This document shows, in pieces, positions 8,331-15,200 of a stretch of 23,805 bases of DNA. The position numbers were made by a program, and so were the translations under genes. This DNA comes from Gemmatimonadota bacterium (lineage in GTDB: Bacteria > Gemmatimonadota > Gemmatimonadetes > Longimicrobiales > RSA9), in the NCBI GenBank assembly GCA_040905425.1, contig JBBDRO010000075.1, positions 1-23,805 on the forward strand, read 5' to 3'. Under the pieces are notes generated by a model. The model saw only the letters and a list, made by a program, of their open reading frames with translations. It had not been told where the DNA came from and did not search any database. Positions within the stretch are counted from its first letter, which is position 1, and each line of letters begins with the position of its first letter.

Positions 8331-9371
8331 ATGACCTACCGCCCCGCGGTCCGCCCGGCCTGCGCCGTACTGGTCGCCCTGGTGACCACCTTCGCCTCCA
8401 CAGCGCCGCTCTGGGCCCAGGAGGCGTGCCGCTTCGAGGCGGGCGTGCCGGACAGCGGCACGTGGCTCAAGGGCAACACCCACACGCACACGCTGGAGAG
8501 CGACGGCGATTCGCCCCCCGAGACCGTGGTGCGCTGGTACCGGGACCACGACTACAACTTCCTGGTGCTCTCCGACCACAACGTCTTCACCGACCCGGCC
8601 GGCCTGACCCAGCTCACCGACTCCAGCTTCATCCTCATCGGCGGAGAGGAGCTCACCAGCAGCTTCGAGGGTGCGCCCGTGCACGTGAACGGGCTGAACA
8701 TCCCGCACGTGCTGGAGGCGCAGCGGGGCCGCACGCTGCTGGAGACCGTGCAGCTCAACGTGGACGAGGTGCGCTCCGTGGACGGCGTGCCGCACATCAA
8801 CCACCCGAACTTCGGCTGGGCGCTCTCGGCGGAGGTGCTGCTGGAGGTGCGGGAGCACCCGCTACTGGAGATCTACAACGGGCACCCGCAGGTGCATAAC
8901 GTGGGCGCCATCGACGCGCCCGACATGGAGGAGGTCTGGGACATCCTCCTCACCGCCGACCAGCGCATCTACGGCATCGCCGTGGATGACGCCCACCACT
9001 TCCAGGGGGAGTTCGCCCGGCATCGCGCCAACCCGGGCCGCGGCTGGGTGGCGGTGAAGGCGCCGGAGCTGGCACCCGCGCCGGTCATGGCAGCGCTGGA
9101 GGCCGGGCACTTCTACGCCAGCACGGGAGTGACGCTGGAGGACGTGGTGAGCACCCCCGGCCGGCTGGAGGTGCGCATCCAGCCGCAGGGCAACTTCCGC
9201 TACACCACCGAGTTCGTGGGCCCCGAGGGCCGCATCCTGGCCACCCGGGGAGGCACGAGCGCTGCCCTCGACCTGCCCGCCGACGCGCGCGGCTACGTGC
9301 GTGCGCGCGTCACCGACTCGGGCGGCGCCATGGCGTGGGTGCAACCGGTGTTCATCGGCTGCGGCGGGTGA
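8331..9371 (+). CDS. Secreted PHP-domain (CehA/McbA-like) metallohydrolase
   Basis: Signal peptide; WLKGNTHTHT..SDG, LSDHN, GEE, HVNGL, INHP, EIYNG and DDAH motifs. Confidence 0.88.
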   Translation: MTYRPAVRPACAVLVALVTTFASTAPLWAQEACRFEAGVPDSGTWLKGNTHTHTLESDGDSPPETVVRWYRDHDYNFLVLSDHNVFTDPAGLTQLTDSSFILIGGEELTSSFEGAPVHVNGLNIPHVLEAQRGRTLLETVQLNVDEVRSVDGVPHINHPNFGWALSAEVLLEVREHPLLEIYNGHPQVHNVGAIDAPDMEEVWDILLTADQRIYGIAVDDAHHFQGEFARHRANPGRGWVAVKAPELAPAPVMAALEAGHFYASTGVTLEDVVSTPGRLEVRIQPQGNFRYTTEFVGPEGRILATRGGTSAALDLPADARGYVRARVTDSGGAMAWVQPVFIGCGG

Positions 9372-9511
9372 AGCGGGGGGTGCGGCGGCGGGTGCCGCCG
9401 ACGACGCCCAGCAAGCACCCCGCCCACGCTTCAGTATAGAGGCTCCACGTCTCAAAGCCTGAACGTAGCCTGCCATTTGACCGCGCAAATCAACAGCGCG
9501 AGATTGATCGT

Positions 9512-9799
9512 ATGAGTATCGACCTGACGACCCTAAGCGAGCTGTGCGAGCGCAATGACATCGGGCGTCTGCGTGTCTTCGGATCGTTCGCCCGCGGCGA
9601 CGACTCGGACGCCAGTGACGTCGATCTTCTCGCCGACTTCACGGAGCGGAAGAGCCTCCTGGACCTGGTGCAGATTGAGCGGGTGCTTTCCGAGCACCTA
9701 GGGCGCAAGGTCGATCTCCTAACGGAGGATTCTCTCAGTCCCTATCTCCGTGGGAGGATCCTCCGCGAGGCGAAGGTTGTATATGAGCGCGCCGCGTGA
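9512..9799 (+). CDS. Minimal nucleotidyltransferase (MNT/MntA-type antitoxin)
   Basis: [16 protein letters not shown] = GSx10DxD; C-terminal GRKVDL; 95 aa; overlaps the next gene. Confidence 0.92.
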
Positions 9800-10145
9800 C
9801 GACACGGTCTACATCAGCCACATCCGCGACTCGATCGCCCGTATCGAGTCCTACCTCGTGGACGTGAGTGAGGAGACCTTCCTCGCCACTCCGCTCATTC
9901 AAGACGGTGTGATCCGCCAGATCCAGATCATCGGTGAAGCGGCGAAGCGCATCTCGCTAGACTTCCGTCAAAGGACCCCGACGATCCCGTGGACCGACAT
10001 TGCCGGCATGAGGGACAAGCTGGTCCATGATTACATGGGTGTGAAACTCGACGCCGTGTGGGAGACCGCGGTGCGGGATATCCCGGCCTTGAAGGTTCAG
10101 CTTGAGCACCTTCCACGCGCCGGCTCGGAGTCAAACAGCAGCTAA
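9783..10145 (+). CDS. HEPN/DUF86 (HepT-type) RNase toxin
   Basis: [26 protein letters not shown] carries the RX4HXY motif; ATG 9783 overlaps the MNT 3' end. Confidence 0.92.
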
Positions 10146-10156
10146 CATCCGGTGAC

Positions 10157-12113: not shown

Positions 12114-12141
12114 CCGCACGCCGGGACTGGCCGGGTACTGA

Positions 12142-12176
12142 GAAGGCGGCGGCCACCTCGCGCGACCGCCGCCTTC
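12142..12176. terminator. Hairpin between convergent genes
   Basis: GAAGGCGGCGG ... CCGCCGCCTTC, an 11-bp stem between stops at 12113 and 12207. Confidence 0.6.
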
Positions 12177-12206
12177 CTCCTATCACGCCCACCGACGCCC
12201 CCCGCC

Positions 12207-15200
12207 CTACTCCAGCGGCGCGTTGCCCGCCCGGTCCACCTTGAAGCTGCGCGTCTGCACCACGTCGCCCGCGCGGAGGGTGGCGAAGTAGGTGCCCGGC
12301 TCCGCGGCGGGGGCGCCGCCGCCGCTACGCGTGGGGAAAAGCGTGGGCCGACCCCGGAAGCCGCCCCCACCACCGCGCACCAGGCGCACGATCCGCTCCT
12401 CCAGCGAGTCCTCATCGCCGCCGCCACCGCCGCCGCCGCCACCACCACCGCCGCCCCGGGGCGGACCCTCGGCCGGCCGCTCCACCCAGCCGTCTCCACC
12501 ACCACCACCACCACCGCCGCCGCCGCCGCCGCCGCCACCACCACCCTGGCCAGGCTCACGCAGGCGGGCCACCGCGGCATTCAGCGAATCCCGTGACTCC
12601 CCGGCCGCCGCCAGCGAATCCACCACCGCGGCCAGGCGCTGCTCGGTCATGAGGCTGTCGCGCCGCTCGGAGGGACTCTGCGGGCCGGCCGGCGGGGCCG
12701 CGCCGCGCATGTTCCACGAGACGGTGTGAATACCGCGCTCATTCTCACCGGGGCGGGTGTCCAGGAGCTGGCCGGAGGCATTGCGGATCTCCACCGTGAC
12801 GTCCCCGTTCACCTCGTCCGCCAGCCAGTACTGGATGTCGGCGCCGCCGCCCGGCGTGGGCGCCTCGAAGTACATCTGCGCGGTGAATTCGCCGCCCGTG
12901 GGCGCGCCGCCGAAGTGGTAGGCGGGCGCCGGCTCGAAGAGGTGCGCCTCGGCTGCCAGCACGGCGGGCCGCAGCTCCTGCAGCGGCGCCACGTCCACGA
13001 TCAGGATGCTCCGCCCGTGCGTGGCCGCGATGAGCTCGCGGTCGCGCGGATGGATCTTGAGGTCGTGCACCGGCACGGCCGGCATGCCGTTCATGAAGCG
13101 GTTCCACGACGTGCCACGATCCAGCGACACGTAGACCGCGCGGTCCGTGCCCACGTAGAGCAGGTCGGGATTGCGCGGATCCTCGCGGATGACGTGCACG
13201 AAGTCCGGGCCGCCCACGGGGAGGTTCGAGGAGATGGAACGGAAGGTTGCGCCCGCGTCGTCGCTTACCAGGACATAGGGCATGAAGTCCCCACGCCGGT
13301 GGTTGTCGAAGGTCACGTAGACCCGGCCCTGCACGTGCTGCGAGGGCTCGATGCGGCTCACGTACGTGCCGTCGGGCACGTGGCCGGCCAGGCGCTCGGT
13401 GAGCTCGATCCACGCGCCGCCGTCATCGGGACTCACCCACAGGTTGCCGTCATCGGTGCCGGCGTAGAGCACGCCCCGCGTGAGCGGGGACTCCGCCAAT
13501 GACACGATGGTGGCAAAGGTCTCCGCCCGCGTCACGTCGGGCGTGATGCCGCCCGTGGTCTGCGTGCTCACGCGGATCTTCATGGTGTCCTGCCGGGACA
13601 GGTCCGGTGAGATGGGCACCATGCCCTCGCCGCGGTAGAGGGACTTCAGCACCCGGTTCCCGCCGGCGTAGAGCACGTCCGGATCGTGCGGCGAGAGGAA
13701 GAAGGGCGTGTTCCAGTTGTAGCGTATGTCGTAGCGCGCCGAGTCGGCCGACGCGCGGCGCTGCAGCTCCTCCACGCGGGCGCGATTCTGTGACGGCACC
13801 GGCCGTGTCGTATCCGGCCAGAGCAGCGCGATGGAGTCCATGTAGGGCTGGTGGACGTCGCGCCAGTTGGGCCGGTCCAGCCCCGTGCTCTGCCCCGTGC
13901 GCATGTCGAAGCGACGCATGCCGCCGCCCTGACTCTCGGAGTAGATGATGTTCGGATCGCGCGGGTCCTGCTGGGTGACGAAGCCGTCGCCACCGCCGAT
14001 GGTGAACCAGTCGTGGTTGGTGATGGCGCCGCGCGCCTTCCGGCTGGGGCCGCACCAGGAGTAGTTGTCCTGGAGGCCGCCGCACACGCGGTAGGGCACA
14101 TCCATGTCGTAGCTCACGTTGTAGAACTGCCCCAGCGGAATGGTGTTGGGGAAGATGTAGTTGCCGCCGCGGTCGAAGGTGATGGCCACGCCGCCGTCAT
14201 TGCCCTCGATGAAACGGTCGGGGTCGTTGGGATCGATCCACTGCGCGTGGTGGTCCACGTGCACCTCGCGCGCCGCCTGACGCACCGTCTCGCCGCCGTC
14301 CTCCGAGAAGGAGAAGGAGGAGAAGTAGACGCGGTCCGGATCCTCGGGGTCCACCCGCACCTGCGAGTAGTAGAAGGGGCGCACGTTCACGTTGTTCTTG
14401 CGCTCCCACGTGGCGCCCGCGTCATCGGAGCGGTAGAGGCCGGACAGGCGCTCCCCGCCCTCCTCCTCGGCTGCCGCCTCCACCATGGTGTAGATGACGT
14501 TGGGATTGCTGTAGGAGAAGGCAATGCCGATGCGGCCCAGCTCGGTCTCCGGAAAGCCGCCGCCCTGGATCTCGGTCCAGCTCTCGCCGCCGTCGCGCGA
14601 GCGCCAGAGGCCGCTGCCCGGCCCGCCGCTCTGCAGGAAGTAGGGCCCGCGGATGCGCTCCCAGCTCGCCGCCAGCAGGTGGTTCTGGTTGGACGGGTCG
14701 ATGGCCACGTCGATGAAGCCGGCGCGGTTGCTGACGAACTTCTTCAGCTCCCAGCTGTCCCCGCCGTTGGTGGTCTTGTAGAGGCCGCGCTCCGGGTTCT
14801 CGGCCCAGGTGTGGCCCGGCGCCGCCACCCAGACGATGTCCGGATTGCTGGGGTGCACCACGATGCGGCCGATGTGGTGCGTGTCCTCCAGCCCCTTGAA
14901 CTCCCAGTTCATGCCGCCGTCGGTGGACTTCCAGATGCCCGCGCCGGGGGCGATGGAGTTGCGCGCGTCCTCCTCGCCCGTGCCCGCCCAGATCTGCAGC
15001 GTGTCACTGGGCGCGATGGCCAGGTCCCCCATGGCACCCGTGGCCTCGATCGGCCAGATGTCCCGGAAGGTGGTGCCGTTGTTGGTGGTCTTCCACACGC
15101 CGCCGGTGGCGGCCGCGAAGTACCACGTCTTCGAGGGGCTCGGGATGCCCTCGATGTCGGTGACGCGGCCCATCATGTTGGCCGGGCCGATGGAGCGCCA

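Follow-up and report, generated by a model that had tools for sequence, protein, structure and literature searches.

Prophage e14 lies in icd, for which it supplies a replacement 3′ end while the displaced original end persists as the icdC remnant, and complex class 1 integrons with ISCR1 carry a doubled 3′-CS, a circle having been rescued by homologous recombination. Here we describe a locus that also carries doubled gene ends. It lies in a stretch of 23,805 nucleotides (the window) that is the entire contig C75 (JBBDRO010000075.1) of genome G000 (GCA_040905425.1; 4.12 Mb, 96.7% complete, 115 contigs), a sediment bacterium of the Gemmatimonadota, and it holds two alleles of one gene slot in tandem between a gene for a PHP-fold metallohydrolase and a convergent gene for a VPS10/sortilin-like protein.

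Two described systems come closest. Insertion with long target duplication (Nobusato et al., 2000; Furuta, Abe and Kobayashi, 2010, PMC2853133) is known mostly from naturally competent species. In Escherichia coli given a linear substrate with one homologous end, 56 of 60 clones carried a duplication (109–950 bp in the 14 sequenced), which was explained by recircularisation and a single crossover and not by homology-facilitated illegitimate recombination (HFIR) (Amarir-Bouhram et al., 2011, PMC3240628). We conclude that G000 has gained genes by an integrase-free, homology-anchored, additive process that is real and repeated in this genome and of a broadly known kind, and that at the locus described here the allele of a close relative was very probably captured beside the resident one, by whichever route.

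The tandem between the PHP and VPS10 genes

The original prediction, made from the letters of the window alone, proposed that the 3′ ends of both flanking genes recur between them, so that two intervals with different cargo follow each other in the order A, cargo 1, B′, A′, cargo 2, B. The features concerned are given below by their window coordinates; G405 is a genome of the same family, and X1, X2 and X3 are public sequencing runs.

8331..9371, + strand, gene for a PHP-fold metallohydrolase (P; CehA/McbA family), the intact anchor, with a signal-peptide-like N terminus
8999..9398, + strand, repeat A: PHP 3′ end (8999–9371) and about 27 nt beyond the stop codon
9399..9449, no strand given, 51-nt word also found on G000 contig C78
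9462..9511, + strand, putative degenerate integron-cassette left core and leader of the toxin–antitoxin (TA) cassette, as it aligns with the GTTAGC core that this cassette has in the G405 attC array (L127)
9512..9799, + strand, predicted MntA-like nucleotidyltransferase antitoxin (PF01909, PF18765; GSX10DXD intact)
9783..10145, + strand, predicted HepT-like RNase toxin (PF01934, E 2e-27; RX4HXY intact)
10140..10165, + strand, attC stump, the first 26 nt, 23 of 26 identical to the G405 attC
10157..10289, + strand, relic of an IS91-like Y2 transposase, internally deleted and frameshifted, 91–92% identical to G000 C19:646-543 and 426-390
10309..10447, − strand, B′: VPS10 3′ end of a second lineage with its own terminator-like hairpin (75 nt coding, 10373–10447)
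10447..10448, no strand given, blunt B′/A′ junction (0 shared bases; bridged in X1, X2 and X3)
10448..10847, + strand, A′: 5′-truncated second allele of the PHP 3′ end, open, without stop or indel
10965..12113, + strand, cargo 2: propeller-like lipoprotein gene, GC 0.69 (native), one of more than 20 paralogs
12140..12281, − strand, repeat B: VPS10 3′ end and terminator-like hairpin
12207..15311, − strand, VPS10/sortilin-like glycosyl-hydrolase-fold gene (V; PF15902; gene model), the intact convergent flank

The repeats bear out this proposal in all but one respect. A (8999–9371) and A′ (10448–10820) differ at 22 of 373 sites without an indel, giving 15 synonymous and 5 non-synonymous codon changes (pS 0.162, pN 0.022; pN/pS 0.14), and the match continues for about 27 nt beyond the stop codon. 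B′ (10373–10447) differs from B (12207–12281) at 2 of 75 sites, a synonymous Thr codon and a Glu/Asp exchange in the last codon; its extent had been drawn too short, however, as similarity to B reaches back to about 10309 at 82% and takes in the VPS10 terminator-like hairpin. Both VPS10-end hairpins fold strongly (z −4.4 and −3.5) despite differing arm sequences, and no hairpin follows A or A′ (folding z near 0). The spacings of 1449 (A to A′) and 1834 (B′ to B) are as first stated, and so is the blunt join, which at 10447/10448 has 0 bases in common with the continuation of either visible parent. No further copy of A, A′, B or B′ was found among the 115 contigs. A 137-aa open reading frame across the junction (P0002), which we read as a by-product, is present on 2 NCBI contigs, and two alleles of the propeller gene are found, each on 1 contig, a pattern suggestive of a second assembly.

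Is A′ a decaying duplicate of A? Decay would be expected to yield about 22 non-synonymous changes and we counted 6 (p=0.004); origin by duplication and decay is rejected at this locus and, at p=4e-9, when 12 fragments from across the genome (described below) are pooled. Because non-synonymous changes are so far under this expectation, and because a third allele stands some 6–7% from both, A and A′ are, judged by their sequences, functional alleles from two lineages, as had been proposed. The third allele came from a GTDB pattern search that returned 7 loci, one of them relevant: L111, a 6280-bp contig that begins inside A and is nearer to A′ (94.2% identity) than to A (92.7%). In it, 14 of the 22 sites that separate A from A′ have the A′ state, 7 the A state and 1 neither, and a further 13 changes are private. 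Behind its PHP stop codon lies a beta-barrel-like gene with a 91% counterpart on contig C53 of G000, followed by Fic-like, TetR-like and other genes (named by eye). The contig ends before any VPS10 gene, and its cargo differs from the PHP–propeller–VPS10 arrangement. Since L111 thus carries a third set of cargo behind a third PHP allele, the slot after PHP varies between relatives, which agrees with the variable slot first postulated. The contig is probably mis-binned in its genome, G041, because that genome has no other close match to window 6200–19400.

The PHP product (NF038032, 102.5 bits against a cut-off of 80) has orthologs at 51–71% in family genomes and metagenomes, and among 80 JGI metagenome loci and 18 others, all at or below 71%, none has a doubled PHP end and none has an MNT, HEPN or convergent VPS10 end adjoining PHP. 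At 6 family loci with a VPS10 end there is no PHP gene within 1.5 kb. In L005 and L024 PHP is directly followed by a co-directional VPS10 homolog at 63–66%, whereas in the window the two genes converge.

Five public runs cover part of the stretch, and X1, X2, X3 and X5 were aligned, as contigs built on 31-letter words. X1, X2 and X3 come from a single study, X1 may be the source sample, and X5 comes from another study. In each of the first three a contig spans the junction with 0 differences: 10415–10641 in X1 (shorter arm 33 nt, depth 33.4), 10377–10641 in X2 (71 nt, depth 19.4) and 10415–10603 in X3 (33 nt, depth 5.3). Coverage over both cargos, a check named in the original prediction, is near that of the flanks, with the reservation that contig depth is not copy number: in X1 the flanks stand at 39.6 and 36.5, the cargo-1 contigs at 48 and 29.9 and the cargo-2 contig at 39, and in X2 the flanks stand at 13–16 and the cargos at 12.3 and 14.8. 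X2 differs from the window by a patch of 5 single-nucleotide polymorphisms (SNPs) in the propeller gene (11531–11600, 70 nt), a change at 12195 and a 6-SNP patch in VPS10 (12930–12963, 34 nt), two of whose states are shared with the relative in X5; the R194Q allele of cargo 2 occurs in X2 and in protein P0012. Because X2 carries these SNP patches and yet keeps the junction and both cargos, the tandem is common to distinguishable populations and is the majority form there. X5 (share 0.05) yielded short pieces only, at 93–97%, over the PHP 5′ part, the propeller start and VPS10, with little on cargo 1 and no adjacency.

Patchy allelic imports are seen nearby, in these X2 patches and in the product of window 15468–16364, a periplasmic-binding (TupA-like) protein whose close homolog P0016, assigned to the Gemmatimonadota by its source, has 16 residue differences, none of them outside aa 121–172 (a mosaic patch). 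Elsewhere in the window, a gene truncated by the contig end (2–1636, −) holds a 66-nt repeat five times and is HNH/DUF222-like by eye, a tandem array of about 6 copies of an 11-nt unit lies at 1982–2069 upstream of a divergent gene, and a small tandem gene pair (6293–6655 and 6742–7218) has a 68-nt N-terminal segment in common at 71%.

The two cargos

The two intervals carry what had been claimed for them, an MNT-HEPN pair with an insertion-sequence relic in one and a propeller gene in the other. Type VII HepT/MntA systems are marked by the motifs GSX10DXD and RX4HXY (Yao et al., 2020, PMC7641770). Cargo 1 has adjacent PF01909 and PF01934 genes with both motifs and is thus predicted to be a HepT/MntA toxin–antitoxin pair of type VII; both proteins fall under the NCBIfam equivalog cut-offs (MntA-like, NF047752, 52 bits against 60, with 4 further cluster members at ≥90%; HepT-like, NF047751, 41 bits, below its cut-off). 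The same pair occurs in G405 at 82% DNA identity between attC-like sites of a cassette array (L127, G405:C6:711081-714784), which is rich in TA cassettes; the upstream attC of that cassette folds as a full hairpin and the downstream one does not, in the minimum-free-energy structure. We assigned attC identity by eye, and integron integrase (IntI) above the cut-off was found neither in G405 nor in G000.

Of a complete attC, with its R″ and R′ cores and bottom-strand hairpin, cargo 1 keeps 26 nt, after which the stump switches to the transposase relic at a 9-nt word present in both. Cargo 1 is accordingly a decayed integron-cassette island fused to an IS91-like relic, and its TA cassette would no longer be excisable as a cassette, given the right attC cut after 26 nt, the degenerate left core (9462–9469) and the lack of IntI in G000. 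The C19 copy of the transposase matches PF04986, and the IS91-like transposase is multi-copy in the community (depth 242 in X1). A 12-nt direct repeat (10149–10160 and 10331–10342) flanks the relic; it is probably due to chance, because one of its copies belongs to the attC stump and the other to the B′ hairpin. The 51-nt word at 9399–9449 has an 86% copy at C78:1387-1437 and precedes foreign-looking genes at both loci. Cargo 2 matches the 6-bladed propeller family PF17170 weakly (E 0.002, below the cut-off).

Truncated gene ends elsewhere in G000

Support that the process has acted repeatedly can be found in a census of 2784 genes of at least 450 nt (codon-model gene calls), in which we recorded every gene end with a second copy of at least 85% identity, on the same strand and no more than 15 kb away. 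The 3′-end census gave 23 rows, from which we left out 8 that were paralog-sized and 1 (C52:15419-16405) that represents an overlap with the doc gene end only. The truncated 3′-end alleles that remain lie downstream in 12 cases (11 loci, C75 counted twice) and upstream in 2. From the 5′ ends 3 of 13 rows are fragments, all of them upstream, and gene middles gave 1 of 10. Altogether, 15 of 17 end fragments are placed so that their gene remains whole (p=0.002).

The target genes are unrelated (among them ftsK, with 656 bp, and genes for a molybdenum-cofactor oxidoreductase, AcrB, an M19 peptidase, a sigma-54 activator and MutS-V) and the repeats range from 53 to 656 bp. The 12 fragments have a pooled pN/pS of 0.20 and no stop in any, and cargo GC is 0.56–0.66 at most loci (0.69 at C56) against 0.705 for the genome. 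One-sided loci, their cargo mostly low in GC, are C30:22018-24999, C36:1388-4048, C62:23150-24823, C80:31588-34619, C100:152279-158799, C19:1-8232, C95, C111 and C56, and also C67:98034-100778 (AbiEi/AbiEii). C19 alone among the loci has a methyltransferase with McrBC as cargo, and several cargos resemble propeller lipoproteins. Mirror-image duplications of 5′ ends lie upstream of intact genes at C58:21315-26153, C59, C89 and C74:19887-24962. C78:88455-89896 is a different case, a 735-bp near-perfect tandem duplication (99%) of a whole 486-nt gene.

A seed scan for the full layout A..B′/A′..B returned 11 rows: 8 repeat-array or multi-copy (C32, C58), 1 of distant paralogs (C80) and 2 clean, C75 and C52; its shifted-gap controls were swamped by repeat arrays and give no clean null. 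At the second two-sided locus, C52:15316-23867 (L134), a phd/doc 3′ end is doubled over 144 bp at 100%, and the doc end adjoins a DUF4015 gene-end allele of 92% identity, with which it overlaps by 1 bp; this allele has 10 synonymous and 0 non-synonymous codon changes and an internal deletion. Each interval carries different cargo there also.

For comparison we searched genomes in tiles of 20 kb. These gave 15 downstream rows in G000, of which we left out 4 by eye as miscalled or multi-copy, and none in 1.2 Mb of G405. G000 has 9 fragments of at least 70 bp in 4.07 Mb, whereas two other genomes together have 0 in 2.4 Mb (p=0.03, with a threshold chosen after looking); the comparison no more than suggests an enrichment in G000.

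Ku (two copies), LigD and ComEC are all encoded in G000 above their cut-offs. No integrase was found at the census loci, which agrees with the integrase-free origin first proposed: PF00589 matches in G000 lie only at C21:18657, C80:45578 and C94:16881, and none of these 3 tyrosine recombinases is at the loci concerned. Nor do the junctions share a significant motif or the inserts a fixed att core. A CGC motif at the junctions looked promising at first (8 of 12, p=0.002) and was rejected at 6 of 11 (p=0.054) once the C19 junction was corrected, C75 was counted once and chance extension was allowed.

How the second allele may have arrived

What, then, brought a second allele to lie beside the first? 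We lean, by a little, towards an end-joined circle and a single crossover. A linear fragment of a relative about 6% diverged, taken up perhaps by transformation, would have run from inside PHP across the HepT/MntA cassette relic and taken in the final 75 coding bases of VPS10; the two ends of the fragment would have been joined bluntly, plausibly by Ku and LigD, into a 1449-bp circle, and a single RecA crossover in the PHP segment of about 400 bp would have integrated it. Such an event would leave PHP intact, displace the 5′-truncated A′ downstream and retain the resident propeller cargo. The same process could have left the one-sided scars at about 10 other gene ends, with a fragment that crossed the whole slot at C75 and C52. 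A crossover in A, bringing in cargo 1, is favoured, though not proven, over one in B, because A is longer, cargo 1 looks foreign as at the one-sided loci, and A′ is nearer to L111, though that leaning (14 against 7) is non-significant (p=0.19).

Several observations weigh against this reading. The polarity switch that a crossover inside A would leave is not significant (10:2 against 4:5, p=0.16, with the breakpoint chosen after looking). Three census cases measure merely 53–57 bp (C56, C95 and C111), one of which, C56, has cargo of native GC, and tiles of G027 gave 3 short downstream rows, plus 6 upstream, in 1.2 Mb. Ku, LigD and ComEC occur widely, and that G000 encodes them makes no link to the process. 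The contigs of 31-letter words break at the identical stretches 9163–9217 (55 nt), 9294–9343 (50 nt) and 10377–10444 (68 nt), and for this reason a tandem and a chromosome with a separate circle are not separable in them and the tandem order rests on the window's own assembly. Lastly, no joint of a circle or of a resolved allele was found among the matches listed for the 4 runs, contigs being apt to drop rare variants.

The rival that we take most seriously, although we think it unlikely, is linear HFIR, in which one end of the donor fragment paired with its homolog (within PHP upstream of 8999 or, in the mirror case, within VPS10) while the other, free end became ligated to the recipient inside the homologous gene, without any circle. 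Circle and linear fragment predict an identical sequence, for which reason the sequence does not tell the circle of the original proposal from one-sided linear integration. Its circle and single crossover do have a direct precedent in the laboratory, in E. coli. HFIR has been proposed for arrays of orphan type VI secretion system (T6SS) and Rhs modules (Kirchberger et al., 2017, PMC5361080), ComEC is encoded in G000, and a blunt joint is no mark of the circle, as HFIR joints in E. coli were blunt in 3 of 4 clones (PMC3240628). As described there, however, HFIR goes with a recipient deletion of about 1 kb and mostly with 3–10 bp of microhomology. Here recipient-homologous DNA is present twice, although donor DNA could have refilled a deletion upstream of 8999 without leaving a trace, and microhomology is 0 bp at C75 and 1 bp at C52, although in the one-sided cases it would be invisible. 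It is because of the E. coli precedent, and because HFIR normally deletes recipient DNA, that we favour the circle and crossover.

The remaining explanations are less probable. Relics of integrative elements of the e14/icd type, supplying a replacement 3′ end, or rolling-circle capture by ISCR/IS91 rescued by homologous recombination, with the enzyme lost or acting in trans, would suit the Y2 transposase relics in cargo 1 and in the C19 cargo, the derivation of cargo 1 from an integron array and a layout that resembles icd/icdC; we hold this improbable, as there are at least 11 different target genes with repeats of 53–656 bp and no common core, the C75 and C52 junctions cut inside the coding sequence of the neighbouring host gene rather than at the end of an element (about 160 nt separate relic and junction), and integrase is absent from all the loci. 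A tandem duplication of the A-X-B unit within the lineage, with later replacement of one unit by a relative's allele through a double crossover, accounts for the allelic divergence, fits the 100% identity of A and A′ at C52 and draws on homologous import that the allelic patches show to be active. We regard it as very unlikely, since it requires two rare events and since the repeat scan found no doubled far flank at the one-sided loci, so that it fails to explain the class. An assembly artefact, whether a chimera of strains or a tandem written from a cargo-1 chromosome and a separate 1834-bp circle, is hardly credible. The Logan contigs do break at the three identical stretches, which leaves the phase of a circle formally open; but a chimera of two simple alleles would yield no B′/A′ junction words, and these are bridged in 3 of 3 runs at flank-like depth, by which the strain chimera is rejected. 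Moreover, the junction reading frame is found on 2 NCBI contigs, it is unlikely that three samples would each hold a non-replicating circle at the depth of the chromosome, and the identical stretches (50–68 nt) are shorter than a usual read.

Two functional suggestions of the original prediction fared less well than its structural ones. It saw the tandem as an intermediate that swaps cassettes; resolution by exchange between the copies (68 identical nt in B, 55 in A) is possible in principle, but the tandem is the majority form rather than a passing intermediate. The idea that the TA pair stabilises the structure finds no support, as C30, C36, C62, C80 and C100 persist with no recognised TA in their cargo and as resolution between B′ and B would retain the TA pair. 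We would go further only with considerable doubt, to suppose that Ku/LigD end-joining and one crossover are a routine, recombinase-free means of adding genes at gene ends, that non-homologous end joining (NHEJ) so serves as a gene-acquisition system at a higher rate than in relatives, and that two-sided loci are stable partial merodiploids, later resolvable to either allele.

Comparison with known systems

We found no literature account of this route at genome scale, in a search whose coverage of subscription journals is thin; the supplements of PMC2853133 may list similar cases. The locus shares much with insertion with long target duplication (PMC2853133): it has a direct repeat of 373–400 bp at a spacing of 1449 and an insert of less than 20 kb, as in that class, where repeats are long and variable and no other mobile element is needed, and cargo 1 likewise has no active mobile-element gene, only the deleted Y2 transposase relic and the attC stump. 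In that class, too, the repeat often spans a stop or start codon and the gene stays intact. The described cases, however, have restriction-modification cargo, an empty site and near-identical repeats (43–47 of 46–47 bp in the rows seen), whereas here the cargo is varied (HepT/MntA at C75), the slot was already filled, the repeats are alleles 85–96% alike under purifying selection, and both flanks are doubled at C75 and C52.

With recircularisation in E. coli (PMC3240628) the locus shares one homologous segment, a partial duplication around the insert and the absence of an integrase, the E. coli case being RecA-dependent, and repeat sizes here (53–656 bp) overlap the E. coli duplications (109–950 bp). 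That case used a laboratory plasmid substrate with identical homology and arose at about 6e-9 per recipient; ours arose in nature, between strains, and is fixed at many loci of a host with genes for Ku and LigD. Orphan arrays of T6SS, Rhs and contact-dependent inhibition (CDI) modules (PMC5361080) are alike in that a module enters at a conserved upstream anchor and displaces the old 3′ end and its neighbour downstream, and in that the alleles of one genome come from different strains. Their anchors are modular toxin genes and their orphans are immunity genes or toxin tips, unlike the ordinary genes, ftsK included, that serve as anchors here and the displaced piece, which has no evident use.

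Cargo 1 itself resembles integron TA cassettes and type VII HepT/MntA systems, in its two signature motifs and in the attC-bounded copy of the pair in G405. Prophage e14 and ISCR1 depend on an enzyme that the element itself encodes and on a fixed end; neither was seen here.

The class of mechanism is therefore not new, and nothing shows a dedicated cassette machine. The origin of integrase-free islets with long duplicated gene ends has so far been inferred from genome pairs only; G000 offers a testable case that the rare circularise-and-cross-over route of E. coli can rank in nature among the main sources of accessory genes, and its pattern of truncated gene ends is a simple signature for genome scans. 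What is new relative to the known systems is the two-sided form in which both parents of a blunt joint are visible, the allelic origin of the repeats, the persistence of the form from one sample to another and, within a single NHEJ-positive genome, 11 loci that make up a polarised set.

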